Source: a virus (Duplodnaviria > Caudoviricetes). Taken from it: a stretch of DNA of 64,000 nucleotides. The translations under genes and the position numbers were made by a program. This document shows positions 23,949 through 43,588 of this stretch, one piece after another (the first letter of the stretch is position 1; the number at the start of each line of letters is the position of its first letter). Where the stretch lies: IMG/VR virus record IMGVR_UViG_3300027759_000043. The stretch is one strand, 5' to 3'. Under the pieces are notes generated by a model, which saw only the letters and a program-made list of their open reading frames with translations, did no database searches and had not been told where the DNA came from.

Positions 23949-24619
23949 TAACACAACTGGCATCAAGGGGTTATGGTTATGGTTCGGGTACACTCAGTCC
24001 CAATCATGATCGTTTCTTGGTGAACATACCCAAAAATGCCAGTAGTTACATGTTGGACTGGGCCAATCGGCATGGCTGGACCAGTGCTGTGATTAACGAC
24101 ACCGTGGTCCGGAACAACGATATCAAAGAAATGATTGTTTGTGTTAGAGATCCAGTTCAGCGTTGGATTTCGGGTGTGGGACAATACTTGACCAGTTATG
24201 TGCTAAACGTAACTGGTGCCTATAGTTGGGAAACTGGCCCAGGTCTTGATGATCAACAGATATCCGGGGATGACTTTGTGGCAGACTACAATCAAGTGGT
24301 TGAACGATTGCTGTTTGATAATCTTGCTAGACTGGATGATCATGTTTGGCCGCAGATAGAATTTTTTGAAAATCTAATACCCACAGTTCCTAGAAAATTC
24401 TTCTACATAGATCAAGACTTTAATCGGCGCATTGGTGATTATCTTGGATTCTCTCCTATGAGTGATCTTGATCGCAATCGCGCAGATACCAACCCTGACA
24501 CATATAAAATTCAAACATTTATTCGACATCGTCTAAATATCAGACCCGAACTAGAGCAAAGAGTACGCAAGGCTTATACTCAAGACTATGAATTAATTAA
24601 ACAAGTATTTGATAAATGA
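23945..24619 (+). CDS. Sulfotransferase-family protein
   Basis: NIPKNASS (5'-PSB), VRDPVQRWISG (3'-PB), DDHVWPQ; start revised to GTG 23945. Confidence 0.7.
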   Translation: MITQLASRGYGYGSGTLSPNHDRFLVNIPKNASSYMLDWANRHGWTSAVINDTVVRNNDIKEMIVCVRDPVQRWISGVGQYLTSYVLNVTGAYSWETGPGLDDQQISGDDFVADYNQVVERLLFDNLARLDDHVWPQIEFFENLIPTVPRKFFYIDQDFNRRIGDYLGFSPMSDLDRNRADTNPDTYKIQTFIRHRLNIRPELEQRVRKAYTQDYELIKQVFDK

Positions 24620-26142
24620 CGCAAGACAACTTAACCTCCAAACAAAATGACTATGCAGTATTTCTTCCAGCAATATCTGGATTTTATTCTACATTCATAG
24701 GTAGACAAAGAAATGAACACTATGTGGATCCGGCTCGATTTCCTCAGGGCCTTACGGATATGGAGCAACTTAATTGGCTCAACAGTACCAAGGCCCTTTT
24801 CCCCTACAAGTGGTCGCTATACTCAGGTGGACATGCGAATCTTGACCTTGCTAAACAAGACTGGTCCGAAGACATGGTTCGAGCCCGAGAGCCTGGCACC
24901 TTTATCCTCGGTGACTCAGGTGGTTTCCAGATCGCTAAGGGTTTGTGGGAGGGTGATTGGAAGGCCAACTCAGGTTGCCCCAAGGCTCAAAAAAAGCGAG
25001 ACGGTGTACTAAAGTGGCTGGATAACATTGCTGACTATGGCATGATACTTGATATTCCAACTTGGGTTATTCACAACAAGGAAGCCAGTCGTGCATGTGG
25101 TATTACTACACTACAAGAAGCGGTAGATGCCACCAAATACAATAACGAGTACTTTATGAAACACCGCCGCGGTGTCAAAAATGGTGGTGCTAGATTCCTA
25201 AACGTGTTGCAAGGTGATAACCACACTTCAGCAGAAGATTGGTATCAACTCATGAAAGACTATTGCGATCCTGTCAAGTACCCAGACACACATTTTAACG
25301 GGTGGAGTATGGGTGGACAAAACATGTGTGACGTACACTTGGTGCTGAAACGTTTGGTAGCATTACGTTATGACAATTTGTTACAAGAGGGCAAGCATGA
25401 TTGGATGCACTTCTTGGGAACCTCCAAACTGGAGTGGGCTGTTTTATTAACTGTAATCCAGAGGGCTGTAAGAAAATATGTCAATCCAAACTTCACAATC
25501 TCGTTTGACTGCGCCAGTCCGTTCCTTGCAACAGCAAACGGACAGGTCTACTTTGAAAACGTGTTTGAACACGACTCAAAGTGGTCGTATCGCATGGCTC
25601 CTTCGGCCGATGACAAAAAATATTCCACAGACACACGCAAGTGGTCAGACGGGGTAGTTCAAGATGGCATCTATCCACGCTGGCAAGACTCGCCCATAAG
25701 CGACTTGTTAAAGATGAAGGATATTTGTCATTACCGGCCAGGCGACCTAAATAAAAATGGCAAGGAAGGCAAAACATCATGGGACAGTTTCTCATATGCT
25801 TTGCTCATGGGTCATAATGTTTGGATGCACTTGACAGCGGTACAAGAAGCCAATCGACGTTTTGATGCAGGAGAACATCCTGCCATGATGCGCCGAAGTG
25901 GGGGAGACTATGCCAAGTTTGAAGACATTGTAGAGGCTATTTTCGCCGCACCGGATAGACAAACTGCAGAAGATATCATAGAATTGTACAGCACTTACTG
26001 GATGGAGATTGTGGGCACACGAGGATTCAAAGGCAAAAAGACCATGAATGCTCGAACACAGTTCAATGCATTGTTTACGTTTGAAGAGCCAGATACTGAT
26101 CCTGAAGATCTGGATACCGATAAACTCGAAGCATTAGAATAA
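24616..26142 (+). CDS. dpdA: TGT-fold transglycosylase, DpdA-like (7-deazaguanine insertion into DNA)
   Basis: LGDSGGFQI, MILDIP, LNVLQG, MHFLG, ISFDCASP; no CxCxxC Zn motif of tRNA TGT; clustered with folE/queD/queE. Confidence 0.75.
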   Translation: MTQDNLTSKQNDYAVFLPAISGFYSTFIGRQRNEHYVDPARFPQGLTDMEQLNWLNSTKALFPYKWSLYSGGHANLDLAKQDWSEDMVRAREPGTFILGDSGGFQIAKGLWEGDWKANSGCPKAQKKRDGVLKWLDNIADYGMILDIPTWVIHNKEASRACGITTLQEAVDATKYNNEYFMKHRRGVKNGGARFLNVLQGDNHTSAEDWYQLMKDYCDPVKYPDTHFNGWSMGGQNMCDVHLVLKRLVALRYDNLLQEGKHDWMHFLGTSKLEWAVLLTVIQRAVRKYVNPNFTISFDCASPFLATANGQVYFENVFEHDSKWSYRMAPSADDKKYSTDTRKWSDGVVQDGIYPRWQDSPISDLLKMKDICHYRPGDLNKNGKEGKTSWDSFSYALLMGHNVWMHLTAVQEANRRFDAGEHPAMMRRSGGDYAKFEDIVEAIFAAPDRQTAEDIIELYSTYWMEIVGTRGFKGKKTMNARTQFNALFTFEEPDTDPEDLDTDKLEALE

Positions 26143-28680: not shown

Positions 28681-29391
28681 ATGAAGCAAATGAGCATTGA
28701 GAATTTAGAATCTCAAATACAAAAATTCTATGGAGAAATCAAATTTCCCGGACTGTATACTTTAGAAGATTTTGAAATTTACAACGCTCATTTGTTCAAC
28801 CCATTTCTTACGCAAATTGAGCAAGGAATAACAAAATGTAAAAGAGTATTAGATATAGGCTGTGGTAGCGGTATGATTGTAAATCTTCTGGCATATCGCA
28901 ATCCTGACATACAGTTCGATGCCGTGGATTTTTCTGACAGTATCGATTTTGCTCTTGATTTTAGTACCAAACATAATATCCAAAATGTGAGATTTTATAA
29001 AATGAACTTTTTTGAGTTCCAATCAAAATCTACATATGATGCTGTGATATGTAATGGGGTATTGCATCATATACCAGATTATTTGAATGCAATCAAACGC
29101 ATTGATCATTTGCTGGAAAAAAATGGTAAACTTGTTGTTGGCCTATATAATCCGTATGGGAAATTAGCAAAGAAACTGTTTCCTATCAATTATGCAAATC
29201 AAATTTTGTTCTTGGATCAAGAGAAAGCACCATTCGAATACACATTCAATTATAAACAGGTCAAATCTCTTTTTAAACAATACACTCTGGAAAAAGTATA
29301 TCCTAGTGTGATTAACCGACTGGTTGACTTAACAAACATTTTCAACTATACTAATGGTGGGCTTACAATTTATACTTTTAGGAAAAATTAA
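28681..29391 (+). CDS. Class I SAM-dependent methyltransferase
   Basis: VLDIGCGSG, YDAVICNGVLHH. Confidence 0.85.
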   Translation: MKQMSIENLESQIQKFYGEIKFPGLYTLEDFEIYNAHLFNPFLTQIEQGITKCKRVLDIGCGSGMIVNLLAYRNPDIQFDAVDFSDSIDFALDFSTKHNIQNVRFYKMNFFEFQSKSTYDAVICNGVLHHIPDYLNAIKRIDHLLEKNGKLVVGLYNPYGKLAKKLFPINYANQILFLDQEKAPFEYTFNYKQVKSLFKQYTLEKVYPSVINRLVDLTNIFNYTNGGLTIYTFRKN

Positions 29392-29395
29392 TATC

Positions 29396-30574
29396 ATGAG
29401 AAAATTGTTTTACATGGGCTTGGAAAGTTATCAAGGCCGCTATACACTACAACTAACAGAGTGGAACAAGCGAGTTTTTGACCGCAGAGGTCTTGACGTG
29501 GTTTATGTTCCTGGCATCACTATTGACAACACACAGGCCATATCAGTTGGGCAGGTGTTGGATGCACATGGTCGCAGTTACTTTGGCATGAGCCAGATGA
29601 TGAATTTGGTTCAATTGATGAAGAACGGAGAAGTTACCAATGAAGATGTTATCTACTTTGAAGACATGTTTCAACCTGGAATCGAGAGCCTACCCTATAT
29701 TCTTGATCAAGTTCCTGCTAGTCAACGTCCCCGCGTATATGTTAGGTGTCTTGCTCAGTCCATTGATCCTGATGATTTCGTACATGTATGGGGTCTGGCG
29801 AAATGGATGGGACTCTACGAACAAATGGTTAATGAGTTTGCGACAGGAGTTCTCGCCACGAACGAAGAGATGGTTGCTCATATGCGTATTGCTGGATGGC
29901 GTGCTCCTATATACAATATTAGTGGCCTAGCATTTGGCAAGCAAGAAGTATTGGAACGTATTGACGGTGCCAACAACATTCGACCATTCCATGACCGTCA
30001 ACTGCGTGTGGGCTTTGCCGCAAGATTTGACCAAGAGAAACAACCGGGCTTCTTCATGGACTTGGCCGAGCAGTATCAAAAGACTGACCCCAGTGTGAAG
30101 TTTGCTATCTTTCAAGGTGGTCCACTGAGATCAAATAATCTAGACTATGTGTATCGTGCTCGGGCATTGGCAGCCGCAGGCTTGTTGGAAATACATGAGA
30201 ATCTAAACAAAAATGATTACTACGCTTTGCTTAATGATACTCGTTGTCTCTTCAATTGCGCCCTTCAGGATTGGGTCAGCAACACCGTGTCTGAGGCTGA
30301 CACTTTGGGCTGTAACGTTCTTTACCCTGCTTATCGTAGTTTCCCTGAAACCTTTGCTAATGATCCAGAACGTCTTTATGTTCCTTGGAGCATGACAGAT
30401 GCCATGAACAAGTTGGATCCGTTGTTGGTCTCTCCGCATACTAGCATGGGTCGTATCAGCGACTGGAACGATGGCACAGTCGATCGCATTGTGGATATTA
30501 TTGAAGGTTCTGGAGAGAAGTGGAATCGTTCAGGTAACAGATATCGTAATCATATAGCAGGGGCCAAATACTAA
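29396..30574 (+). CDS. GT-B fold glycosyltransferase
   Basis: GFAARFDQEK, CALQDWVSNTVSEADTLGCNVL, FPE C-terminal nucleotide-sugar-binding pattern; start MRKLFY. Confidence 0.75.
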   Translation: MRKLFYMGLESYQGRYTLQLTEWNKRVFDRRGLDVVYVPGITIDNTQAISVGQVLDAHGRSYFGMSQMMNLVQLMKNGEVTNEDVIYFEDMFQPGIESLPYILDQVPASQRPRVYVRCLAQSIDPDDFVHVWGLAKWMGLYEQMVNEFATGVLATNEEMVAHMRIAGWRAPIYNISGLAFGKQEVLERIDGANNIRPFHDRQLRVGFAARFDQEKQPGFFMDLAEQYQKTDPSVKFAIFQGGPLRSNNLDYVYRARALAAAGLLEIHENLNKNDYYALLNDTRCLFNCALQDWVSNTVSEADTLGCNVLYPAYRSFPETFANDPERLYVPWSMTDAMNKLDPLLVSPHTSMGRISDWNDGTVDRIVDIIEGSGEKWNRSGNRYRNHIAGAKY

Positions 30575-31521
30575 TGAATGTTATAGTTACCGGATCAGGC
30601 GGCTACATCGGTGGCCAAATCATGTTGCAGTTGAAGGATGCAGGACACACAGTATACGGCATTGATCGACAGCAACCTCCCAAACACTTGTTGGGTGTAT
30701 GTGACAAATTCTTGTATCAGGACTTTGCGTCAGATGTGGCCTTGAGTTGGATCATTGCCAAACAACCTGATGCTATTGTTCACTGTGCTGGTACCAGTCT
30801 TGTGGGTCCGAGCATGAAGAATCCCAGTGACTACTACAACAACAATGTGGTCAAGACTTTAAAGTTGCTAGATATTGTTAAAAACAGTCTGCCCCGAACA
30901 AGATTTATCTTTAGTTCTAGCGCAGCCACATACGGCGAACCCATTATAAATCCTTGCCAGGAGGTGGATCCTTGTGAGCCAGTTTCACCTTATGGCCAAA
31001 GCAAACTCATGGTAGAACAGATACTAGCAAGTTATCACCAAGCATACAATTTGGATTATGTGGCATTCCGTTATTTCAATGCTTGCGGTGCTGACAGTCG
31101 GGGTAGACATGGCCAAGCACCTGGCGCCACACACATCATTGCTCGTGTGCTGGAAAACATTAGAGATCAAAAAGAGTTTGTGTTAAACGGCGACGATTTT
31201 CCTACTGAGGATGGCACATGTGTGCGTGACTATGTACATGTGGAGGACATTGCAGGTGCTCATGTGTTGGCCTTGGATCGAAAAATAGAGCCAGGTGTTT
31301 ACAATCTTGGTTCCAACATGGGCACAAGCAATCGAGGCATCATCGAAGCCGCACTAGATGAAACACAACGACCTTTGAATGTTGTGGTGGGTGATCGTCG
31401 TGAGGGAGATCCTGCTGTGTTAACAGCCAGTGATGCAAAGTTTGCGTCGATTGTGGGCAAGTGGCGGCATCATATTTTAGATGACATAATCCGCCACTCG
31501 TGGGCGTGGTATGTTCGATAG
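30574..31521 (+). CDS. galE: UDP-glucose 4-epimerase
   Basis: TGSGGYIG, SSSAATYG, YGQSK, RYFNACG, RDYVHVED. Confidence 0.92.
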   Translation: MNVIVTGSGGYIGGQIMLQLKDAGHTVYGIDRQQPPKHLLGVCDKFLYQDFASDVALSWIIAKQPDAIVHCAGTSLVGPSMKNPSDYYNNNVVKTLKLLDIVKNSLPRTRFIFSSSAATYGEPIINPCQEVDPCEPVSPYGQSKLMVEQILASYHQAYNLDYVAFRYFNACGADSRGRHGQAPGATHIIARVLENIRDQKEFVLNGDDFPTEDGTCVRDYVHVEDIAGAHVLALDRKIEPGVYNLGSNMGTSNRGIIEAALDETQRPLNVVVGDRREGDPAVLTASDAKFASIVGKWRHHILDDIIRHSWAWYVR

Positions 31522-32461
31522 TCCAGAAATTTTTTATTTCAACAAACCAAAAGATGTCATATTTGATGATAATTGGGTTTTAGATTATGACAAAATTGCC
31601 AAACTCAAAGATTATAAATTAGTAATTGCTGATTTCAGTCCTGATCATTATGGAGTCGATGGTCTGGATCATGTGTACCAGGCCTTGGATCAACAGCAAG
31701 TAAACTTTTTGTTGTTGTCGCATGACCCACTGGACCATAAACGTTTTGAACGAATGTGGTTCTATCCAACTTGGTATCATTGGGCCAGGAAAAATTTAAA
31801 AACTAAAAATTCTCAGTCATTAGACAAAACCTACAAATGGAGTTGTTTAAATGCCAACCCAAGAAATCATCGTATATACAATTATTATTGCTTGCATCAA
31901 AAATCCTATTTCCATGATGCATGCTTTACTTTCTACAATGGTGGGGCAACAAGAGCGGATGATGTGCCACTGGATGATGAAGTAACACAATTCTGGAACA
32001 ATATCAAGCAAACTTTGCCCCACAGTAGTACAATATTTTCAAACGGTTATCCAATAGCAGATTGTAATCTTCCTGCTTGTTATGATTCCTATATTCAGTT
32101 GGTAGTAGAGACTACCATAATTGAAAAAATGTTTGTGAGTGAAAAAACTTGGAAGCCAATTGCCTCTGGACAACTTTTTTTAATCTTTGGCAATCCCGGA
32201 ACAGTAAGTTATCTCAGAAATCAAGGAGTGGATGTATTTGACGATTTGATAGATCACAGTTACGATCACACACTAGATTGGAAATTGAGACTACATCAAA
32301 TACATCAACAATTGGAAATTTTGATTTGTCAAGATCTGCGAAAAATCTATCAAGACACACGCGAGCGACGTGAGATCAACAGGCAAAAATTTCTTTCAGG
32401 AGCCTTTGATCAACGTAATCACTATTTAGAACAATGCATCAAGACGTACCTACAAATCTAA
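31511..32461 (+). CDS. Putative glycosyltransferase (GT10-like C-terminus)
   Basis: FVSEKTWKPI...LFLIFG...LRNQGVDVFDDLIDHSYD. Confidence 0.55.
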   Translation: MFDSPEIFYFNKPKDVIFDDNWVLDYDKIAKLKDYKLVIADFSPDHYGVDGLDHVYQALDQQQVNFLLLSHDPLDHKRFERMWFYPTWYHWARKNLKTKNSQSLDKTYKWSCLNANPRNHRIYNYYCLHQKSYFHDACFTFYNGGATRADDVPLDDEVTQFWNNIKQTLPHSSTIFSNGYPIADCNLPACYDSYIQLVVETTIIEKMFVSEKTWKPIASGQLFLIFGNPGTVSYLRNQGVDVFDDLIDHSYDHTLDWKLRLHQIHQQLEILICQDLRKIYQDTRERREINRQKFLSGAFDQRNHYLEQCIKTYLQI

Positions 32462-32502
32462 ATTGCTATTAGTTTTTATCTTAAATAAATTATCAATCAA
32501 AG

Positions 32503-33117
32503 ATGATCAAACTAGAAGATTACTCAAATCCTTTCCAAGCAATATTTGACTTTGAAACAGCAGTGGCCAAATTTACTGGCGCACCTTATTGTATCTCTAC
32601 AGATTGTTGTACTCATGCAATCGAAATAGCATTTAGACTAAGTGACTATGAAGATTGGGTCACATTCCCTGCGTATACATATCTTAGTGTTCCTATGACC
32701 ATGCACAAGTTAAATATTCCGTATCAGTTGACCGACAACAAATGGAAAGACTACTATAAGTTTGAAGGCAGTCGCGTATGGGACTGTGCTCGTTATTTTA
32801 AACCGGATATGTATGTGGCAGGAAGCATACAGTGCATTAGTTTTGGACGGAGTAAACCGTTGGAAATTGGCCAAGGTGGATGTATACTAACCGATGATGC
32901 TGAAATATATCGCAAGGCCAGCATGATGCGGTACGATGGTCGAGATCTGCGCATCGGCCCATGGATTGAACAAAAAGAATTTCAAGTAGGTTATCATTAT
33001 TACATGCGGCCTGAAGAATGTGTCACTGGACTTAACTTACTGGCAGAAAAAAAATTTACCACGCAACTGGATAAACATTTTGTTTATCCAGATGTTAGCA
33101 GTATATCCATTAAGTAG
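32503..33117 (+). CDS. Short DegT/DnrJ/EryC1-family PLP aminotransferase
   Basis: STDCCTHAI, WDCAR, ISFGRSKPLEIGQGGCILTDD. Confidence 0.75.
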   Translation: MIKLEDYSNPFQAIFDFETAVAKFTGAPYCISTDCCTHAIEIAFRLSDYEDWVTFPAYTYLSVPMTMHKLNIPYQLTDNKWKDYYKFEGSRVWDCARYFKPDMYVAGSIQCISFGRSKPLEIGQGGCILTDDAEIYRKASMMRYDGRDLRIGPWIEQKEFQVGYHYYMRPEECVTGLNLLAEKKFTTQLDKHFVYPDVSSISIK

Positions 33118-33128
33118 ACTTTGCACGT

Positions 33129-33731
33129 ATGAAAATACTATTATTAGGAGATAGTTTTGGGGCAGATTGGACTGTGAAATATCCAGATCAAGTGGGCTGG
33201 CCTAATTTGCTGTCCAGAGAGTATGAGGTGGATAATCAATGCCAGGCAGGTAGTAGTGAATTCCGAATTCAGACACAATTGGTCAAACATTCATCAGATG
33301 ATGTTACACACTGCATTGTGGTTCATACAAGTCCCTATCGATTGCCAGTGGAACACAATCCACTGCACAAAGACGACTGCTTGCATCATTCTTGCGATTT
33401 TATATATAGTGATGTGGCAGAATCCGATAACTCTCAAGTTAACTGTGTTAAAGAATATTATGAAAAATATTTTTTTGATGAGTTCTTTTTGTACATACAC
33501 AAGTTGATTGTCAGCGATATCAGTCGCACTCTCAAAGAAAAAAATATACCTAGTTTGCACATCACATTCTTTGACAATGGTGATGAGCAGATTGACATCA
33601 ACTATAATAAGTTGTTTGTTAAATCCCCGGGAGTGATAAATCATTTGTCATCTGAGGCAAATAAACAAGTATTTGATGATATAAAAAAATGGATCGACAA
33701 TGTTGATGCTATTTTACCTTTTGTCAAATAA
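33129..33731 (+). CDS. SGNH hydrolase-like protein
   Basis: LLGDSFG; G.SEFRI; NHLS..AN. Confidence 0.65.
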   Translation: MKILLLGDSFGADWTVKYPDQVGWPNLLSREYEVDNQCQAGSSEFRIQTQLVKHSSDDVTHCIVVHTSPYRLPVEHNPLHKDDCLHHSCDFIYSDVAESDNSQVNCVKEYYEKYFFDEFFLYIHKLIVSDISRTLKEKNIPSLHITFFDNGDEQIDINYNKLFVKSPGVINHLSSEANKQVFDDIKKWIDNVDAILPFVK

Positions 33732-33745
33732 GATAAAAATCTTTC

Positions 33746-33774
33746 TTGACAACACAATCTAAATACTATACAAT
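33746..33774 (+). promoter_or_regulatory. Dual early/late promoter for folE
   Basis: TTGACA-17-TACAAT with TAAATA in the spacer. Confidence 0.7.
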
Positions 33775-33812
33775 ACAACAAAGACATCTACGTTTTGTAA
33801 CTTGGAGAAAAA

Positions 33813-34550
33813 ATGACAGAACCAGTAACACTCAACAATGTTGACAACAAAGGCTACGAAGAGGCATACCTAGCAGACGCTATCCGTTGCAAAATGCAAC
33901 GTGATAACAAACGTTTTTGGGCCGGAGACAACATCAGTGATTATGTAAACGAACAAACCAAAACACAACTGATCGACGAAGCAACCAAGGCATTTGAAGG
34001 TGTTTTGGATGCATTGCTAATCGATCGTGAGAATGATCCCAACAGCAAAGGTACAGCACGACGTTTGGCCAAGATGTACTTTAATGAAATAATGGCAGGT
34101 AGATATGAACAGTCACCAAACGCTACGGCTTTCCCAAATGATACAGACGGTGCATACGAAGGCATGTTGGTCGTTCGTTCAGAACTCAAAAGCATGTGCT
34201 CGCACCATCACCAACCTGTGTCGGGTGTGGCTTATATTGGAATCATTGCTGGACCCAAACTTATCGGACTCAGCAAGTATACACGTATCGCTCAGTGGTG
34301 TGCTCGGAGAGGAACCTTACAAGAAGAACTATGCATGGATATTGCTCGAGAGATTGGAACTGCCACTGGGTCATCCGATGTTGCGGTTTATATACAGGCT
34401 ACCCACGGATGTTGTGAGAATCGCGGTATTATGGCACACAGTAGTCTCACGCAAACTACAGTACTCCATGGTGCATTCAAGACCGACCCAAGTGTGAAGA
34501 AAGAATTTTTTGACAACATCAAACTTCAACAAGAGTTTGCACCAAGGTAA
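33813..34550 (+). CDS. folE: GTP cyclohydrolase I
   Basis: SMCSHHHQP, GLSKYTRI, LQEE, HGCCENRG. Confidence 0.95.
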   Translation: MTEPVTLNNVDNKGYEEAYLADAIRCKMQRDNKRFWAGDNISDYVNEQTKTQLIDEATKAFEGVLDALLIDRENDPNSKGTARRLAKMYFNEIMAGRYEQSPNATAFPNDTDGAYEGMLVVRSELKSMCSHHHQPVSGVAYIGIIAGPKLIGLSKYTRIAQWCARRGTLQEELCMDIAREIGTATGSSDVAVYIQATHGCCENRGIMAHSSLTQTTVLHGAFKTDPSVKKEFFDNIKLQQEFAPR

Positions 34551-34553
34551 CTT

Positions 34554-34748
34554 GTGTTAGAATTAATTATTGCCGTGACAATAGGGTTTATGTTGGGCTT
34601 GACCTATCGTCAAGAACGCCTAATCCATCAATACTACAAAACACGAGACGAAATAGAACAAGAACTTTTCAAAGAGTTATCGTACTATCGAAATCTCAGT
34701 GAGAGTTTAAAACAAGATTTACACGAACTTAAAACGAGGAAAAAATGA
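34554..34748 (+). CDS. Small membrane-anchored coiled-coil protein
   Basis: Hydrophobic N-terminus. Confidence 0.65.
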   Translation: MLELIIAVTIGFMLGLTYRQERLIHQYYKTRDEIEQELFKELSYYRNLSESLKQDLHELKTRKK

Positions 34749-34858
34749 GTTGCATTTCCAATCACGACGGATCTATTCAACTGCCTGTGGAACCAGGGCT
34801 GTTGGAATGGTTACAACAACACTATCCACATTCACAATATCATTTGACTACTATATGA
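34745..34858 (+). CDS. 37-aa protein (homolog of 9703-9822)
   Basis: MSCISNHDGSIQLPVEPGLLEWLQQHYPHSQYHLTTI; ATGA overlaps at both ends. Confidence 0.7.
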   Translation: MSCISNHDGSIQLPVEPGLLEWLQQHYPHSQYHLTTI

Positions 34859-35256
34859 AATACCAAACACTAGAATCAGCACAGGCCGCTGGAGCGGCAC
34901 CTTGGGATCTAAAGATAGATGAACTGTCGGACTTTCATGTCACTGTGTTCCGAGATCGCTTCCCAGTCACTAACGGTCATTTGCTGTTTGTGCCCAACTT
35001 CAACACACCTGAAGTGATCAACGAAGCATTTTACAGTGCTCAATTGGCTGGAGAGTCAATGATTAACTTGGGTGAGTGTGATGCCTACAACATTGGTATC
35101 AATCAAGGACCAGCCGCTGGACAAACTGTAATGTATCCACATGTTCATTTGATTCCTCGCAAAACTGGTGACTGCACAGACCCTATTGGTGGTGTGCGTG
35201 GGGTCATTCCTGCACAACAAAACTATAAAACTGGTGGCTACAAACAGCCAGTATAA
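34855..35256 (+). CDS. HIT-family nucleotide hydrolase
   Basis: DRFPVTNGHLL, YNIGINQG..AGQTV..HVHLIP histidine triad. Confidence 0.88.
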   Translation: MKYQTLESAQAAGAAPWDLKIDELSDFHVTVFRDRFPVTNGHLLFVPNFNTPEVINEAFYSAQLAGESMINLGECDAYNIGINQGPAAGQTVMYPHVHLIPRKTGDCTDPIGGVRGVIPAQQNYKTGGYKQPV

Positions 35257-35325
35257 ATATTTCTTTAAGCGGTATTGACGTCACATACTCTGCCGCCTAG
35301 ACTATAATTGACATATAAGGATAAC

Positions 35326-36027
35326 ATGGTAAATCAGTTGCAACTTAATCCATATAACGAAGAAATATGTAGAGAAGTTGTTGAATTTTTTAAAGAGAAA
35401 ATCAAAAACAAATACGGAAAGTTTACAGTAAATGATTTCCGTAAATTTTATAAGTCCGACGATAATGCGCATTCTTGCGAGACTCCCAGGTACTCAGTGG
35501 TATTCGGACTTATTCCGTGTTCATCTTTTTATTATCTAAATAAATTATTAGAAATAGAACCATTGGAAATTGCAGACATCGGGTGTGGTATGAATTTTTT
35601 TAAAGATATAGTTCCCGGAATCACAGGTTTCGATGGACATGGAAAATGGCGTGATGTCAATGACGTATTTGATGATGACTTTATTACCGGACATACAGAT
35701 TTTTTCCAGTGTGCATTTTCTATCGATGCGCTACATTTTGTTCCAATAACAAATTTTTATAAACGAGTGTTAGATTTTGCAAATATTATAAAACCCAGAG
35801 GCAGAGGATATCTTGCGATGAATATGGCTCGGATGGTTGAACAGACAGATAAAAAAATTTTAAAAGAGTTGTTTAATACCGAAGACCCCAATAACAATCA
35901 ACTTTCGGACTATATAAATCAAAAAATTAAAATGTTACCTTTAAATTTTTTAGTTATTGATAATTTAATTACAGAAATATACGATGAACCTATAGATGGA
36001 AATATTAGATTAGTATTTGAAAAATAA
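35326..36027 (+). CDS. Methyltransferase-like protein
   Basis: IADIGCG, CAFSIDALHF, IKPRGRG. Confidence 0.6.
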   Translation: MVNQLQLNPYNEEICREVVEFFKEKIKNKYGKFTVNDFRKFYKSDDNAHSCETPRYSVVFGLIPCSSFYYLNKLLEIEPLEIADIGCGMNFFKDIVPGITGFDGHGKWRDVNDVFDDDFITGHTDFFQCAFSIDALHFVPITNFYKRVLDFANIIKPRGRGYLAMNMARMVEQTDKKILKELFNTEDPNNNQLSDYINQKIKMLPLNFLVIDNLITEIYDEPIDGNIRLVFEK

Positions 36028-36033
36028 ATATTC

Positions 36034-36100
36034 AGCGGTCTCGGACATCATTCCCGCTTTACAAACTCTGCTGTCTATGCTATAATTTAACATAGGAGAA
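36034..36100 (+). promoter_or_regulatory. Candidate preQ1-I-like riboswitch / structured leader of queD, overlapping a sigma70 promoter
   Basis: P1 AGCGG/CCGCU, loop U...C, A-rich tail; also TTTACA-17-TATAAT at 36058-36086. Confidence 0.5.
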
Positions 36101-36105
36101 ACAGC

Positions 36106-36603
36106 ATGACACCCGTAACTTACAAATACACTTCAACCAAAGAATACCACGATGCATTTCCGTGCGCCTACAGACAATGGAGAGCCGACAGCCATTGTAA
36201 TTTGATACACGGCTATTCGTTCTCAATGAAGTTTTACTTTGGTACAAACGACCTAGACGTTCGTAACTGGGCCGCTGATTATGGTGGTCTCAAAGAACTT
36301 AAAAACGTACTAGAAGATCAATTTGATCACACATTGTTGGTTGCTGAAGATGATCCTGAACTGGAACTCTACAAAGAAATGCAACGTCGCAACATTGCCA
36401 AACTAACTATATTACCCCGACTTGGATGCGAAGGTCTTGCTGACCAACTGTACCGGTTTGTTAATGGCGTTTACATTCCTGACTTTTGGGGGCAGGGTGA
36501 AGCAGAGCGACTCTGGTGCTATCGTGTAGAAGTACGCGAAACACAGAGTAATATGGCTTTCCGAGAAGGCCATAGAGAATGGAATGAAGATTTATTTGCA
36601 TGA
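36106..36603 (+). CDS. queD: 6-carboxy-5,6,7,8-tetrahydropterin synthase
   Basis: CNLIHGY, FDH, GCEGLA, VRET...A. Confidence 0.88.
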   Translation: MTPVTYKYTSTKEYHDAFPCAYRQWRADSHCNLIHGYSFSMKFYFGTNDLDVRNWAADYGGLKELKNVLEDQFDHTLLVAEDDPELELYKEMQRRNIAKLTILPRLGCEGLADQLYRFVNGVYIPDFWGQGEAERLWCYRVEVRETQSNMAFREGHREWNEDLFA

Positions 36604-37427
36604 GCACGGATATTTCAATTTTGTTGCCCACACGTGGTAGATCAGACATGCTCATGCGTAGTCTCTCCAGCCTACATGATTTGGCCACTGACTTTTCCAC
36701 AATCGAACTTGTACTAGGTATGGACAATAATGATACCATTGGACTTGAATATCTGTTGCATCATGTCATACCCTGGATTGAAACACATAATATATCACAC
36801 AAGATTGTGATATTTGAGCCCATGGGCTATCACAATCTGCATCGCTATCTAAACGGCCTGGCTGAAAACAGCCAAGGTGGGTGGATGTTCTTCTGGAACG
36901 ATGATGCTGTAATGACGACTCAAGGATGGGATACTTACATACGTGCCAAGATTGGCGAATTTAAATTGTTAAGTGTAATAACACACAACGAACATCCTTA
37001 TTCAATTTTTCCTATCATTCCACGTGCGTGGTTTGAAACACTGGGACACATTAGTCAACACAGCCTCAATGATGCCTGGGTCAGTTGTATTGCCTATGCT
37101 CTGGACATCTTTGAACGCTTGCCCATCTACTGTAATCATGAACGTGCTGACCTCACAGGTACCAACAATGATGCAACTTATCAGCAGAGAATAGTACTTG
37201 AAGGCGATCGGAGTAATCCTCTAGACTTTAACTATCCAAGCGTGGTTGAACTTAGAATGCAAGATGCAGCCAAACTGGCGCAATGGTTGCAGGATGTGAA
37301 GAATCAAGACATGAGTTTCTTTGCAGAGTGTTGCGAAGGCACAAGAGATCCCTGGGTCAAAATGCGGGCTAACGACCCTAATCAACAAGTTATTAGTATG
37401 ACTGTGGACCGATTAAATAAAGCATGA
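36600..37427 (+). CDS. GT-A (family 2-like) glycosyltransferase
   Basis: ISILLPTRGR, WMFFWNDDA (DxD-like). Confidence 0.8.
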   Translation: MSTDISILLPTRGRSDMLMRSLSSLHDLATDFSTIELVLGMDNNDTIGLEYLLHHVIPWIETHNISHKIVIFEPMGYHNLHRYLNGLAENSQGGWMFFWNDDAVMTTQGWDTYIRAKIGEFKLLSVITHNEHPYSIFPIIPRAWFETLGHISQHSLNDAWVSCIAYALDIFERLPIYCNHERADLTGTNNDATYQQRIVLEGDRSNPLDFNYPSVVELRMQDAAKLAQWLQDVKNQDMSFFAECCEGTRDPWVKMRANDPNQQVISMTVDRLNKA

Positions 37428-39373
37428 CCAAAAGAACTATAAGTTTTGTACAGCCTAACTTTCAACAAGGCCCCAAAGAGTTTAATGCTTATTATTTGCC
37501 CTATTCAGCAGGGGTAATATTGAGTTATGCCATGGGTTTTGAGCACATACGTGCGGCATGGGCTATAGATCAATTGATCTGGCGCAGAGAAGATATTGAA
37601 GAACTTGCACCTCGGTTGGCCAAGAATGACGTTGTGGCATTCAGTACCTATGTGTGGAATCATAGGTACAACTACAAACTGGCTAGACGCATTAAAGAAA
37701 TCAATCCTGCTGTAACGATCATATTTGGTGGACCTGAGCCTGCCATCGAAGATCCCGAATTGTTTAACAAAGAACCTTTCATGGATTTAGTCAGCAAGAT
37801 GGAAGGTGAGATCACATTCAAACGCATACTAGAAGACTTTGATACTGATTTCAGTCACATACCAGGCCTGTTGATCAACACTCCCACAGGCTTGGTCAAC
37901 ACCGGAGACTGTGCTAGAATTGACGATCTAGATCAAATTCCTAGTCCTTATCTTACAGGCATCTTTGATAAAATCATTGAAGAAAATCCTGACGTGATCT
38001 GGAATGCCACACTAGAAACCAATCGCGGATGTCCATATCAGTGTACTTTTTGCGATTGGGGTAGTCTAACTTACAATAAGGTCAAGAAGTTTGAACTTAC
38101 CCGAGTGTTCCATGAAATGGACTGGATCGGTGCCAACTGTGGCTTTGTCACAATCACTGATGCCAACTTTGGTATGTTTGTGGAACGTGACAACATGATT
38201 GTGGACAAACTGATTGAAGTACAGAAACGTTGGGGACGCCTGGCATCATTCTCCATGACCTGGGCCAAGAATCAAAAGAACGAAGTTGTGGACATTGTGA
38301 AGAAGTTGATTGAAGAAAGTCCAAACTTTGGCCAAGGTCTTACTGTTAGTGTACAAAGTATGGATCACGACGTGTTGGAAAACATCAAACGTAGAAATCT
38401 GGATCAACACAAGATTGACGAAATCTTTGCCTTGTGTGATCGCAACAACATTCCTGTGTATACTGAGTTAATTCTAGGCTTGCCCGGAGAAACTGTTCGA
38501 ACTTGGAAAGATGCATTTTGGAAAATCTTCCGTGCCGGCAATCACACAGGCATAAACATTCTCCAAGCACAGTTATTGGAAAATGCCGAAATGAATCTTC
38601 TCCAAAAGCGCATGTGGAAGATTGATTCAGTTCCAGTGTACGATTACATGAGTGGCAGTTACGGTGATGCCGACCTTAACGAATGTGTGGATGTGGTGGT
38701 GAGTACCAAGGACATTCCCAAGGAAGAAATGTTAGACACCTTGGTCTGGAATAGTTTTATTCAGACATTTCATATCAATGGCCTAACCACCTACATTGCT
38801 AGATACCTGGACAAAGCACATGGCATTGAATACAGCCAGTTTTATGATGACTTGTATCAGTGGGTGCAAAAGGACGACTGGTTCCGTGAACAGTTTGCTG
38901 ACACACGCAACTATTTTGCCAACTGGACCCGACAAGGATCCATTGATCATCCTCCTATTGGCAACATTCAAGTGTTTGGATGGAATCTAGTGCATCGTAC
39001 TACTTTGTATATGCAAAAACAAGATCGAGTGGCCTATGTGTTCGATAGTGTTGACAGATTTGTAAAAAGCCATTATAATATTGACAAGGACATATTAGAT
39101 CAACTCATGCAGTTTCAGCGGAACTATGTGATTGACTATCGTGACCTTAAATCTTTGCCGATAAAACAACAGTTTGATTATGATTTCCTTGGCTACATTT
39201 TAGACAACGAACCAATCAAGCAAAAATGTACATACATGTTTGATACTCCAGAAGATCAAGACATGAGCATGGATCGTTTTCTTGAAAACATGTATTTTGC
39301 TAGAAAGAGAAACTTTGGAAAAACAACTATCACCCGAGACAGCATCCACAACGTCGAACTTGCCCGAGCGTGA
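37424..39373 (+). CDS. Cobalamin-binding radical SAM enzyme
   Basis: N-terminal B12-domain pattern (FSTYVWN, IIFGGP, EGE); ETNRGCPYQCTFC; ELILGLPGE. Confidence 0.9.
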   Translation: MTKRTISFVQPNFQQGPKEFNAYYLPYSAGVILSYAMGFEHIRAAWAIDQLIWRREDIEELAPRLAKNDVVAFSTYVWNHRYNYKLARRIKEINPAVTIIFGGPEPAIEDPELFNKEPFMDLVSKMEGEITFKRILEDFDTDFSHIPGLLINTPTGLVNTGDCARIDDLDQIPSPYLTGIFDKIIEENPDVIWNATLETNRGCPYQCTFCDWGSLTYNKVKKFELTRVFHEMDWIGANCGFVTITDANFGMFVERDNMIVDKLIEVQKRWGRLASFSMTWAKNQKNEVVDIVKKLIEESPNFGQGLTVSVQSMDHDVLENIKRRNLDQHKIDEIFALCDRNNIPVYTELILGLPGETVRTWKDAFWKIFRAGNHTGINILQAQLLENAEMNLLQKRMWKIDSVPVYDYMSGSYGDADLNECVDVVVSTKDIPKEEMLDTLVWNSFIQTFHINGLTTYIARYLDKAHGIEYSQFYDDLYQWVQKDDWFREQFADTRNYFANWTRQGSIDHPPIGNIQVFGWNLVHRTTLYMQKQDRVAYVFDSVDRFVKSHYNIDKDILDQLMQFQRNYVIDYRDLKSLPIKQQFDYDFLGYILDNEPIKQKCTYMFDTPEDQDMSMDRFLENMYFARKRNFGKTTITRDSIHNVELARA

Positions 39374-40199
39374 CCCCACACTAGATATCAGTATTTTGTT
39401 GCCCGTACGTGGCAGGCCTGAGCCCATGGAAAAGTGTTTACACACACTTATCGATCGAGCAAAAAATCCCGAACGTATTGAAGTGTTAATTGCATTTGAT
39501 GATGATGACACAGACACTATTGAATATTTTGTGGACAATATCACACCCTACTTGGATGATATGGGTGTGCGTTACAGTGCCTTGCAATTCAAACGCCTGG
39601 GATATATCAGGCTTAATGAATATCTAAACGAATTGGCCAAACACAGTCATGGTGCTTGGATGTTCTTCTGGAACGATGATGCTGTGATGACCACGCAGGA
39701 TTGGGATCAAGCGATCATGGACCATGATGATGAATTTGCACTGTTACGGGCAGAAACCAATCATGAACATCCTTATGCAATATTTCCCATTGTGCCACGC
39801 AAGTGGGTTGAAATTACCGGACACTTGAGTCCACATCAAATCAATGATGCTTGGGTAAGTCAAGTGGCTTGGATGCTGGACATTGTTATAACTATACCGG
39901 TCATGATCAATCATGAACGCTATGACCTTACTGGCAAGAACGGCGATGATGTTTACAAAAATCGCCCCATGTTGGAAGGTAACCCATCAAATCCCAAAGA
40001 CTTCAATCACATCACATGGCGCAAGATCAGAATCGACGAGTGCATGAAGTTGGCTCAGCATATTGCGCCACTAGGGCATGACATGAATCATTTCAAGTGG
40101 GGCATCGAAGGTGTTGATGACAAAGGCAATGAATATGACATCTGGTGCAAGATGAATCTCGCAGACCCGCACAAGCGATTAAAACAATGGCGAAACTAA
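39282..40199 (+). CDS. GT-A (family 2-like) glycosyltransferase, paralog of 36600-37427
   Basis: ISILLPVRGR, WMFFWNDDAVMTTQ, HPY.IFPI.PR; start possibly TTG 39315. Confidence 0.8.
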   Translation: MKTCILLERETLEKQLSPETASTTSNLPERDPTLDISILLPVRGRPEPMEKCLHTLIDRAKNPERIEVLIAFDDDDTDTIEYFVDNITPYLDDMGVRYSALQFKRLGYIRLNEYLNELAKHSHGAWMFFWNDDAVMTTQDWDQAIMDHDDEFALLRAETNHEHPYAIFPIVPRKWVEITGHLSPHQINDAWVSQVAWMLDIVITIPVMINHERYDLTGKNGDDVYKNRPMLEGNPSNPKDFNHITWRKIRIDECMKLAQHIAPLGHDMNHFKWGIEGVDDKGNEYDIWCKMNLADPHKRLKQWRN

Positions 40200-40200
40200 C

Positions 40201-40983
40201 ATGAACAATGATCAACTGATTGACCGCATTAAAAATTACTGGAACACCCAACCCTGTAATGTCAAACACAGCCTAAGTGAACCTGGTACAGAGCAATACT
40301 GGAATGAAATAAGTGAGCGTAGATATTTTGTTGAACCGCACCTTCGCGACTTAGCCAGTTTTCATTTGTGGCGCGGCAAACGTGTGTTAGAAGTAGGTTC
40401 GGGTATTGGATCAGATGCTGTGGAGTTTGTGCGCCATGGTGCTGAGTATGTGGGCATTGATCTCTCAGCAGAATCTGTGGCCATGAGCCGTCAACGTTTT
40501 GACTTGTTTGGACTTGAAGGCGAGTTTCATGTGATGGATGCCGCTGACACCGAGGCTATGGCTGCGTTGGGACAGTTTGATTTGGTATATTCATGTGGTG
40601 TGTTACATCATTATCCGGACATGACCACTTGTCTTGACAACATTCACACAGCACTTGAACCGGATGGTGAGTTCAGAATGTTAGTGTACGCAAAGAATTC
40701 CTGGAAATATGCCATGATCCGAAAAGGTCTGGACCAGTTTGAAGCACAAGCAGGCTGTCCATATGCACAGGCTTACTCAAACGAGGACATATACAATCTC
40801 CTAAATGGCAAATTTGAGGTGCTAAGGATTAGACAATCGCATTGTTTCATGTATAATGTACCTAAGTATAGACAAGGTATCTATGAACTAGAACCTTGGT
40901 TTGCAGCCATGTCGGAAGAAATGCGCGAGGCTGTAAAAGAATATCTAGGTTGGCATTTATTGGTTAAAGCAAAGAAAATATGA
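40201..40983 (+). CDS. Class I SAM-dependent methyltransferase
   Basis: VLEVGSGIGSD, FDLVYSCGVLHH. Confidence 0.88.
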   Translation: MNNDQLIDRIKNYWNTQPCNVKHSLSEPGTEQYWNEISERRYFVEPHLRDLASFHLWRGKRVLEVGSGIGSDAVEFVRHGAEYVGIDLSAESVAMSRQRFDLFGLEGEFHVMDAADTEAMAALGQFDLVYSCGVLHHYPDMTTCLDNIHTALEPDGEFRMLVYAKNSWKYAMIRKGLDQFEAQAGCPYAQAYSNEDIYNLLNGKFEVLRIRQSHCFMYNVPKYRQGIYELEPWFAAMSEEMREAVKEYLGWHLLVKAKKI

Positions 40984-41831
40984 GCAAACTCAAAATAGCA
41001 GAACTGTTTTATAGTATTCAAGGTGAAGGCAGATATATGGGGGTGCCCAGTGTATTCCTTCGAACCTTCGGGTGTAATTTTTCTTGCAGGGGATTTGGCA
41101 TGTCTCGAGGAGAACTTAGTGATGAAGCAGAACTTATTGATCCTACTAACTATACCGACTACAATGAATTGCCTTTGGTATCAACCGGATGTGACAGTTA
41201 TGCAAGTTGGGATCCTAGATTCAAAGATTTGAGTCCCATGTTAGAAACCAATGCTATTGTTGATCGTATCATGCAAATACTTCCGCACAAGCGTTGGGAA
41301 GATGAGCATCTTGTGATCACAGGTGGTGAGCCACTGTTAGGATGGCAACGTGCTTATCCGGACTTGTTGAATCATCCAAGCATGGGCAGACTTCGAGAAA
41401 TCACATTTGAAACTAATGGCACTCAGAGGTTAGATGATCAATTCAAACAACACTTACACACCTGGACCTCTCATCATGGTCAAGACTTCTATAGAGAAGT
41501 CACATTTAGTGTGAGTGCTAAACTACCTGGATCAGGTGAGTCATGGTCGGATGCTATCTGTCCAGATGTGGTATGTGAATATGAAGAATATGGTTATACA
41601 TACTTGAAATTGGTCGTAGCAACAGAACAGGATCTAGTAGATGCAGAACAAGCAGTTGAAGAATATCGTGCGGCTGGGTTTACAGGTCCTGTGTATGTTA
41701 TGCCTGTTGGTGGTGTTGAACGGGTGTATACCCTTAACAATCGTGCAGTGGCAGAAATGGCAATGCGAAAAGGCTGGCGGTACAGTGATAGACTACAAGT
41801 GCCACTATTTAAAAACGAATGGGGGACCTGA
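40980..41831 (+). CDS. queE: 7-carboxy-7-deazaguanine synthase (radical SAM)
   Basis: YSIQGEG, FLRTFGCNFSC...GCDS, ITGGEP, ETNGT, RLQV. Confidence 0.92.
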   Translation: MSKLKIAELFYSIQGEGRYMGVPSVFLRTFGCNFSCRGFGMSRGELSDEAELIDPTNYTDYNELPLVSTGCDSYASWDPRFKDLSPMLETNAIVDRIMQILPHKRWEDEHLVITGGEPLLGWQRAYPDLLNHPSMGRLREITFETNGTQRLDDQFKQHLHTWTSHHGQDFYREVTFSVSAKLPGSGESWSDAICPDVVCEYEEYGYTYLKLVVATEQDLVDAEQAVEEYRAAGFTGPVYVMPVGGVERVYTLNNRAVAEMAMRKGWRYSDRLQVPLFKNEWGT

Positions 41832-42223
41832 TGGGGATACGTGATTGGTTTAAGAAAAAGCCCGAGCCTGCACCAAAGGTCCGGTCTGAACCCAAACCCA
41901 AAGAACCAGTCAAGACTGAAAAGCAGTTGGCTACAGAGCGTGGCGAGCCTTGGGTGGCAATCTTAAGCATGGACATTGATCCTGAAAACTTGCATCAAGG
42001 CGCATTTGAACTAGACTGGAATGACAAGTTCATATTCAATCTTATTCGTGCGGGGTACCAACTCAAGAAAGAAGACACTGACGGAGAAATTGTGGATCGC
42101 TGGTTCCAAAATGTTTGCCGACATGTTGTAATGGAAACTTGGGAACAAGAAGAAGCCATGAAGAAATCAGGCATTTATGTTCGTGCCACAGATATTGGTA
42201 ACGGACGCACGGAAGTTTCATGA
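41831..42223 (+). CDS. Conserved phage protein (homolog of 12797-13249)
   Basis: GAFELDWNDKFIFNLIRAGY...GRTEVS. Confidence 0.85.
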   Translation: MGIRDWFKKKPEPAPKVRSEPKPKEPVKTEKQLATERGEPWVAILSMDIDPENLHQGAFELDWNDKFIFNLIRAGYQLKKEDTDGEIVDRWFQNVCRHVVMETWEQEEAMKKSGIYVRATDIGNGRTEVS

Positions 42224-42909
42224 TCTCGGAAATTTTTGTTAATGGTGACAGTTTCTCTGCCCCTGCCCAGGACGTTGTGCCGTATTCCGTACATCTTGGA
42301 CAAATGTTCAATGTTCCGGTTACAAATTTTGCTGTGGCAGGCAGTTCAAATGACAGATTATTTCGTTCTACGTTAGAATATTGTCTAAATCTTTCGGATC
42401 AACAAACACCATTGATAGTGATTGGATTTAGTTTTGTTGACAGGGAAGAAACTTGGATCGATGAGCCTTCCAAATGGCATGAACAAGCGAGAGATTTTAC
42501 TGGGTCAAAATTTCTAAGCACTATGTGGTTAACCAATCAAACTGTAGATGAAACCACTATGCATCTGATCATAGATCAAAATATAAATCAACAAATGATA
42601 AATTTTTATACTAAATTGTTCATGTTTACTCAAACTTTAAAACAATTAAAGATACCGTATTTTTTATTTTCAGCGGCAAACAATCAAGATTTTAGAAAAT
42701 TAGATTGGTCATGTTTAAAAAATTTAAACATGTATAATTATGTTCAGAGTGATGCTTGTGTGCTTGATATACATGGTTTCAACATGAGAATTTGGGCCGA
42801 AACCAATCAGGTACCCATTAATACTTATCACTATTTGTATAATGACGGTCATAAAAAATTTGCCGAATTTTTACATGGTCAAATAAATGATACTTTATGT
42901 AAACGGTGA
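42220..42909 (+). CDS. SGNH hydrolase-like protein
   Basis: VNGDSFS, GSSNDRLFR, YHYLYNDGH. Confidence 0.65.
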   Translation: MISEIFVNGDSFSAPAQDVVPYSVHLGQMFNVPVTNFAVAGSSNDRLFRSTLEYCLNLSDQQTPLIVIGFSFVDREETWIDEPSKWHEQARDFTGSKFLSTMWLTNQTVDETTMHLIIDQNINQQMINFYTKLFMFTQTLKQLKIPYFLFSAANNQDFRKLDWSCLKNLNMYNYVQSDACVLDIHGFNMRIWAETNQVPINTYHYLYNDGHKKFAEFLHGQINDTLCKR

Positions 42910-43588
42910 TAGTCACACTGCGGCTGCCGAAGCAGTGAACTCTTATGCCTTTGCAGAAGATGATGGCTTGTATTACGGTCTGGGTCGTAGGCCACATCCA
43001 GACAACGAGCGTGTGAGTTGGGGTTGTGAACTGGCCAATCATCTCCGAGCCATATTGCATTGTGATGCAGAAAGTGCCTCCAGCAATGCTCGTATCATGC
43101 GCACCACACGGGCTTGGTTGCAACAGCAAGACAGTCTTGAAGATACCTTGGTCATTATACAGTGGTCAACTTGGGAACGTCAAGAATGGTTGCATGACAG
43201 TACATGGTATCAAGTGAATGCTAGTGGTCTAGATGATGTGCCCGAATCATTACAAGATCGTTATCGAAGATTCATTGTTGATGTTGATTGGGCCGAAGCA
43301 AGACAACATGCACACAGCCAAATTTGGCAGTTTCATAGAGAACTGCACCTCAACGGTGTTCGCCATGTGTTCTTTAATGGTAACTCAGATTTCTCAGGTG
43401 TACCAAATCGCCACGACTGGGGCGTCAACTACATGGCACCATATGATCCGGCCAATACCTATGACAGTGTGCTGAAAAACAACAGTTTCAAAACGGTACG
43501 CCCAGATTCCTGGCATTTTGGTGAGGCGGCCCATTGCTTTTGGGCCCAACATGTGCTAAACTACATCAAACACAACAACTTGGTTTAA
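42887..43588 (+). CDS. SGNH hydrolase-like protein
   Basis: VNGDSHT, SSNARIMR, WHFGEAAH. Confidence 0.7.
   Translation: MILYVNGDSHTAAAEAVNSYAFAEDDGLYYGLGRRPHPDNERVSWGCELANHLRAILHCDAESASSNARIMRTTRAWLQQQDSLEDTLVIIQWSTWERQEWLHDSTWYQVNASGLDDVPESLQDRYRRFIVDVDWAEARQHAHSQIWQFHRELHLNGVRHVFFNGNSDFSGVPNRHDWGVNYMAPYDPANTYDSVLKNNSFKTVRPDSWHFGEAAHCFWAQHVLNYIKHNNLV

Follow-up and report, generated by a model that had tools for sequence, protein, structure and literature searches.

A conserved preQ1-I-like pseudoknot in the leader of a phage queD gene: an uncatalogued riboswitch candidate

Does the short leader in front of a phage queD gene hold an RNA sensor, and if it does, what would it sense and in which direction would it act? 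The question is raised by a stretch of 64,000 nucleotides (nt), hereafter the window, from an uncultured virus (Duplodnaviria; Caudoviricetes; IMG/VR record IMGVR_UViG_3300027759_000043). On its plus strand, a 78-nt intergenic leader separates an open reading frame (ORF) at 35326-36027 from a gene for a queD-like 6-pyruvoyl-tetrahydropterin / 6-carboxytetrahydropterin synthase (36106-36603; PF01242 at 7e-14, phrog_2389 at 1e-35). Phage-native riboswitches are, to our knowledge, rare, and we know of none that governs the 7-deazaguanine genes with which phages modify their DNA; our full-text literature searches found no paper on a queD-leader RNA in phages. An earlier note, made from the letters of the window, had described this leader as a class I preQ1 (preQ1-I)-like pseudoknot acting as a feedback switch. 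We find that the element itself is real and present it as an uncatalogued preQ1-I-like riboswitch candidate.

A covarying pseudoknot tied to queD

Positions 36034-36076 form an H-type pseudoknot of two helices, P1 (AGCGG, 36034-36038, with CCGCU, 36054-36058) and P2 (GGACA, 36043-36047, with UGUCU, 36072-36076). Alignment with relatives delimits the loops. L1 (UCUC, 36039-36042) is nearly invariant at its positions 2 and 3 (C and U) and variable at its first, in a profile partly biased by the search pattern. L2 (UCAUUC, 36048-36053) ends on an invariant C. L3 (36059-36071) reads UUACAAAC followed by UCUGC; across relatives its 5′ half is A-rich and runs into a nearly invariant YUCUGC, and its length of 13 nt in the measured copies was fixed by the search patterns. 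The loop of P1 as a whole is 15 nt long (36039-36053), with U as its first and C as its last base. The last base, C36053, occupies the place of the preQ1-I specificity cytosine, which immediately precedes the P1 3′ strand and follows a U or an A (PMC11625349). It is C in 42 of the 42 relatives found through the QueD protein, and the base before it is U in 83% of a set partly biased by the search pattern. Every letter that the earlier note quoted stands in the window where it was placed, including this C and the A-rich tail that starts at 36059; the U that opens the loop is also present, but this first base is not conserved across relatives. A covariance model built from the relatives finds a single full copy in the 64-kb window (60 bits, E 4e-16).

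The evidence that carries this structure is covariation. A search of viral contigs with the QueD protein gave 80 loci at 84-95% protein identity, and the leader is conserved in about 70 of them. Among relatives, the AGCGG/CCGCU of the window changes to AGAGG/CCUCU, ACCGG/CCGGU, AGUGG/CCACU and UGCGG/CCGCA; in an alignment of 42 sequences, every cell of P1 is paired and three of the five pairs show double changes. P1 was examined further in three scans of viral contigs that fixed only the L2 end, a variant P1 3′ strand one position off the majority, and L3, with the 5′ strand left out of the selection. A perfect Watson-Crick 5-mer lies 10-22 nt upstream of 199 of the 226 distinct variant 3′ strands, compared with 2 of 4294 in the non-cognate control, and eight types of P1 were seen. 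P1 is therefore established, and the covariation whose absence the earlier note had named as refuting its reading was found.

P2 has a more flexible form, in which the loop segment before L2 finds its partner in the 4-7 nt 3′ of the conserved UCUGC. Relatives carry GGCG/CGCC, GGUG/CACC, GGCU/AGCC, GACG/CGUC, GACAU/AUGUC, GGCAU/AUGCC, GACUU/AAGUC and GGAUG/CAUC, as well as bulged helices (GGC-a-UU/AAGCC in some, GGC-u-CU/AGGCC in others), and 79 distinct P2 helices were counted. A first score that ignored bulges separated cognate from non-cognate pairs weakly and was superseded by a bulge-tolerant one, applied to 180 distinct loop/tail combinations. With the latter, the mean rank of the cognate tail among 33 tails is the 80th percentile, and the cognate tail lies above the median in 97% of cases. 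The observed mean was reached in 0 of 300 permutations, and in 0 of 500 for a smaller set; these are permutation statistics inflated by the kinship of the sequences, not counts of covariation events. We take the support for P2 covariation as strong. With both helices covarying, the earlier proposal of an H-type pseudoknot of preQ1-I topology directly upstream of queD is borne out, and we regard the pseudoknot as real with near certainty.

Two other pairings proposed in the earlier note were examined among the 219 distinct aptamer sequences that we pooled from uncultured phage contigs. CGGA/UCUG, which it had taken for P2, can be drawn on paper; since UCUG never varies and the pairing is available in only 76 of the 219 copies (35%), it was rejected in favor of GGACA/UGUCU, the P2 that covaries. 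AGCGG/CUGCU, offered as an alternative to P1, is possible in the window and in only 60 of the 219 copies; it too shows no covariation and was rejected as a conserved anti-P1.

The motif is abundant, occurring in hundreds of lake-phage contigs, and it keeps to one gene. A queD homologue follows on the same strand in 207 of the 211 copies that have enough downstream DNA, within 150 nt in 199 of them; the exceptions have an extra ORF between leader and queD. The QueD proteins behind the motif are 30-100% identical to that of the window, 45 of them in the 30-40% band, and the leader is nearly unchanged where QueD drops to that level. With 207 of the 211 copies preceding queD across this range of protein identity, conservation of the leader thus reaches well past that of the coding sequence. 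Exactly one copy is present in every one of five large phage records, of which three are at least 98% complete. A scan of one bacterial or archaeal genome for each of 185,579 species gave 27 pattern matches, of which two are real, both in front of queD on contigs of metagenome-assembled genomes (MAGs). The other 25 are without queD and were set aside as chance matches. The two real copies are on a 183-kb contig of a Haliscomenobacter MAG (L205) and an 8-kb contig of a Chitinophagales MAG (L227); these may be mis-binned phage contigs or a hint of a Bacteroidota host.

A strand shared with the ribosome site, and the promoters around it

The Shine-Dalgarno (SD) sequence of queD is AGGAG at 36094-36098 and its start codon lies at 36106-36108. 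Two structures can hide them. The hairpin P3 (36074-36096) pairs UCUAUG (36074-36079) with CAUAGG (36091-36096); a −10 hexamer forms its loop and its 3′ strand overlaps AGGAG, so that the SD-covering hairpin of the earlier note is present. Minimum-energy folds add an outer alternative helix (36069-36106) of UGCUGU (36069-36074) with ACAGCA (36101-36106), which closes over the SD and extends to the A of the start codon. Both draw on nucleotides of the P2 3′ strand. In relatives, P3 takes such forms as CCUAUA/UAUAGG (L131) and CUCUAUU/AAUAGAG (L162).

This sharing is systematic. When the platform, taken from the end of L3 to a point 12 nt beyond the start codon, was folded by itself in 151 distinct leaders, the P2 3′ strand was at least half paired in 91% of them, and 509 of its 543 partner contacts fell in the SD or start-codon region. 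With the strand held unpaired, the fold loses 4.6 kcal/mol on average and SD pairing drops from 0.74 to 0.43; for the window, the platform folds at −11.1 kcal/mol alone and at −4.7 kcal/mol with the strand held open. Two platform designs occur, CCUAUG/CAUAGG over the SD, as in the window, and GYCAUC/GAUGGC over the start codon, and both use the P2 3′ strand. A hallmark of riboswitches is a conserved aptamer linked to interchangeable platforms through one shared strand, and this is the arrangement found here. Since the strand is common to the pseudoknot and to the helix that hides the SD or AUG, a locked pseudoknot is predicted to free the ribosome site. The folding models thus read as an ON switch, a direction that we hold to be an even call, and the competition for the P2 3′ strand argues against the feedback OFF switch that the earlier note had implied.

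Two candidate promoters bracket or overlap the aptamer. Upstream, the late-promoter-like AATAAATA (36023-36030) matches the T4-type late promoter TATAAATA in 7 of 8 positions, overlaps the TAA stop codon (36025-36027) of the preceding ORF and, judged by its letters, may act as a promoter. Of the 151 distinct leaders, 90 have TAAATA, the T4-type late promoter core, in the 35 nt that precede P1, mostly at a distance of 5-11 nt, and some other leaders have TG-n-TATAAT in that place. In the window as a whole, TATAAATA is not enriched (3 occurrences vs 4 expected). Nested within the element is a sigma-70-type promoter, TTTACA-17-TATAAT (36058-36086), with 11 of 12 consensus bases and an extended −10 TG at 36078-36079; its −35 lies in L3 and its −10 is the P3 loop. 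The earlier note had cautioned that a promoter overlaps the element, and this is confirmed. Among leaders of the P3 type, 96 of 105 have retained a promoter with TG that matches at least 9 of 12 consensus bases, compared with 4 of 46 among those of the other platform type, which keep the whole aptamer; given its retention in the P3-type leaders, the nested promoter is probably real. Contigs from three RNA libraries cover the region, some spanning 36023-36111 and others parts of the aptamer; they make up small shares, may derive from DNA and show no starts, ends, strand or level, and are weakly compatible with long transcripts. Further near-consensus sigma-70 promoters (11-12 of 12) occur at 33746-33774, in the gap just before the FolE gene, and at 39051-39079 and 40830-40857, within the queD operon.

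A second, broken copy of the leader was recognized by alignment, a partial covariance-model match and pattern search at 35252-35325 on the plus strand, where it precedes the ORF at 35326-36027 (ATG at 35326), which encodes 233 aa of no known family. It retains a perfect TATAAATA, the P1 5′ strand, the 3′ half of L3, the P2 3′ strand (CGCC), TATAAT and the SD, and the nested promoter persists at 35275-35308. Missing from it are 11 nt that cover L2 and the P1 3′ strand, and P3 pairing has been lost. Upstream of it lie the genes for FolE (33813-34550) and a HIT-family protein (34750-35256). The closest relative (L007) has the order FolE-HIT-leader-queD without the 233-aa ORF, and another relative (L142) has a 42%-identical ORF between an intact leader and queD; from these arrangements it would follow that the ORF was inserted together with a duplicated leader. 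The newcomer seems to have kept only the promoter and SD part, and the intact aptamer to have remained with queD. In two further relatives (L176 and L183), a different ORF with its own TAAATA box and SD is inserted between the intact leader and queD. The leader may thus be a hot spot for gene insertion.

Proposed mechanism, ligand and alternatives

We propose that the queD leader has at its 5′ end a cis-acting RNA aptamer, encoded at 36034-36076, with a 5-bp P1, a 5-bp P2 and the conserved L2 and L3. The pseudoknot would most likely be locked by a small ligand whose guanine-like face is read by C36053. The locked pseudoknot would take the base away from P3 and the outer helix, the ribosome site would open, and queD and its translationally coupled operon would be translated. 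From the nested promoter, located in L3 and the P3 loop, a second and shorter transcript would arise that is without the aptamer and escapes control; only transcripts started upstream, from the late-promoter-like TAAATA or by read-through, would be regulated. As an account of the whole, a cis-acting aptamer controlling translation of the queD operon is the explanation we favor, with somewhat better than even confidence, and that it is a ligand-sensing switch seems to us moderately probable.

As for the ligand, the invariant cytosine argues, from conservation, for a molecule with a guanine-like face. Such a face is common to deazaguanines and pterins. The earlier note had seen no QueC, and we likewise find none among the window ORFs scanned or in complete relatives: profiles of QueC and TGT/DpdA gave nothing convincing in five large relatives and no match in three near-complete ones. 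Since FolE lies upstream of the switch, a feed-forward response to the FolE product is as plausible as deazaguanine sensing. The set FolE-QueD-QueE without QueC has been linked to dCDG or dDG in phage DNA, the deoxy forms of 7-carboxy-7-deazaguanine (CDG) and 7-deazaguanine (DG) (PMC10516641). More tentatively, and with less than even confidence, we consider that the leader may represent a phage-restricted new riboswitch class that senses an intermediate on the way from GTP to 7-deazaguanine and turns the queD operon ON in long transcripts. Its ligand would then be a deazaguanine (CDG or DG) or a pterin (dihydroneopterin triphosphate or 6-carboxytetrahydropterin); FolE, upstream of the switch, would be outside its control, and the nested promoter would provide unregulated expression.

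Several observations weigh against a ligand-controlled ON switch. The fold of the whole leader is not more stable than that of shuffled sequence (z −1.6), about a fifth of the copies have bulges or only 3 pairs in P2, and 7 of the 80 close queD relatives have no leader motif within the 3-kb upstream flank. In the window, the late-promoter-like box stands only 3 nt from P1, and a start there would clip P1, so the aptamer may here be read only in read-through transcripts. The conserved L3 and P3 loop double as −35 and extended −10 elements, and their conservation may be partly promoter-driven; transcripts from the nested promoter would be without the aptamer. Moreover, the ON direction is drawn from nearest-neighbor folding energies of the platform alone, and in the que pathway it is unusual for a biosynthetic gene to be under an ON switch.

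Three other explanations were weighed. If the conserved block were mainly a DNA-level promoter, with P1 and P2 as a passive 5′ or intercistronic stabilizer or insulator and no switching, the good match of the nested promoter in the window, its retention in the P3-type leaders and the fact that the broken copy keeps exactly the promoter part would be accounted for. However, the 46 leaders of the other platform are mostly without the promoter and have the full aptamer, P1 and P2 covary around an invariant L2, the P2 3′ strand is systematically common to the helix over the SD or AUG, and there is no U-tract for a terminator; we consider this explanation unlikely. A pseudoknot at the 5′ end of a leader, near the ribosome site, could also be the operator for a phage protein, either QueD itself or a RegA-like repressor, as in the T4 gene 32 leader. 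The phage does carry a T4-type family B DNA polymerase (phrog_262), and conserved structure alone cannot separate a protein from a small ligand. What makes a protein operator improbable is that L2 and L3 are nearly invariant across QueD proteins only 30-40% identical, which a fixed small ligand or a tertiary fold fits better, and that size and layout match small-molecule aptamers.

The third explanation, that the leader is a canonical class I preQ1 riboswitch which turns off queD translation on binding preQ1, has in its favor the same topology, a 5-bp P1 ending in GG, UC before the P1 3′ strand, an A-rich start of L3 and the association with a 7-deazaguanine pathway gene. When 4227 Rfam families were compared with a 53-nt stretch, PreQ1 (RF00522) also ranked first, but its 9.6 bits (E 5.3) fall short of the gathering score of 39, and the match is limited to P1, the UC that precedes the 3′ strand of P1 and the first part of the tail. 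RF00522 is absent from a 251-nt stretch at E up to 10 and is not even sub-threshold on a divergent variant (L055), and neither the window nor any of 20 diverse relatives has an Rfam 15 match that reaches the gathering score. In addition, L3 holds a nearly invariant YUCUGC within its 13 nt, U is not conserved as the first base of the loop, the SD lies outside the P2 3′ strand, and the helix that competes for this strand speaks for ON. We regard a canonical preQ1 riboswitch as highly unlikely. From the earlier interpretation, the pseudoknot architecture in front of queD thus stands, and membership of the Rfam preQ1-I family, the P2 partner and the OFF direction are not supported.

Should the queD-leader pseudoknot bind a ligand, it would be a new consensus among small pseudoknot aptamers, with an extended L3 and an ON wiring unusual for the que pathway, and would reveal how the timing or output of a costly precursor pathway is set by a phage. 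It would also offer a compact 45-nt sensor for a deazapurine or a pterin, and the nested promoter together with two interchangeable platforms would make a natural system for the re-wiring of aptamers. The abundance of the motif makes it directly testable in vitro from sequence alone.

Gene company and comparison with known RNAs

The window comes from the genome of a large phage with 11 tRNA genes, and its DNA polymerase gene is at 19403-22063. Freshwater metagenome runs contain DNA near-identical to the window, and blastn of 35300-37500 gave no match in cultured phage records. queD opens a tightly overlapping operon that reaches 41831, in which many stop and start codons overlap; it is followed by genes for a glycosyltransferase, a B12-radical SAM (S-adenosylmethionine) protein, a GT2 glycosyltransferase, a methyltransferase and a QueE-like enzyme (phrog_2076 at 5e-50). 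For both the QueD-like and the QueE-like protein, scores fall far short of the NCBIfam equivalog cut-offs. Over 29354-43588, the FolE, QueD and QueE-like genes sit amid sugar-modifying and methylating genes; the region also encodes an epimerase/dehydratase, a DegT-type aminotransferase, two glycosyltransferases, a KedN5-like B12-radical SAM C-methyltransferase, two SAM methyltransferases and two DUF6071 proteins. This company suggests a product more elaborate than a plain deazaguanine.

Elsewhere in the window, 24616-26142 encodes a protein of 508 aa that has thousands of metagenomic homologues, those in PA5oct-like jumbo phages being annotated as hypothetical. Protein-language-model features place it near TGT/DpdA clusters (0.93 and 0.88). 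It had no sequence match in Pfam, PHROG or PDB, and its AlphaFold model, with a mean predicted local distance difference test (pLDDT) score of 48, was too poor for a fold search. This DpdA lead was dropped.

Among known RNAs, the SAM-II/SAM-V, fluoride, guanidine-III and NAD+-II riboswitches resemble the queD leader as small pseudoknot aptamers beside a ribosome site that control translation through strand sharing. Their gene contexts are unrelated to it, and none of these families matched the 251-nt or the 53-nt stretch at E up to 10. In T4 gene 32, the mRNA leader begins with a pseudoknot that serves as a protein-bound translational operator. The queD leader is like it in having a 5′ pseudoknot that would govern translation initiation, a likeness drawn from established knowledge and not from sequence comparison; the T4 element differs in its protein ligand and in the gene it controls.

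The closest comparison is with the preQ1-I riboswitches, for which consensus models of types I-III have been published, with examples from B. subtilis queC and T. tengcongensis (PMC11625349). The queD-leader motif shares with them an H-type pseudoknot of similar size, the GG end of P1, the location before a 7-deazaguanine pathway gene, the cytosine directly 5′ of the P1 3′ strand, mostly after U as in type I, and the A-rich start of L3. It differs in that its L3 continues into YUCUGC, where preQ1-I has a short A-run into P2, in a longer P2 of 4-7 bp that is often bulged, and in a variable first loop base. In preQ1-I the SD is located within or beside the P2 3′ strand, or else there is a terminator downstream, and the bound ligand turns expression off. 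In the queD leader the SD lies outside P2, 18 nt downstream, and use of the P2 3′ strand in the pseudoknot competes with the helix over the SD or AUG, the wiring that reads as ON. Unlike the preQ1-I riboswitches, the motif is found almost only in uncultured phages. By the tests run here, the queD-leader motif would therefore be best described as a preQ1-I-type pseudoknot in architecture that stands outside the preQ1-I family.

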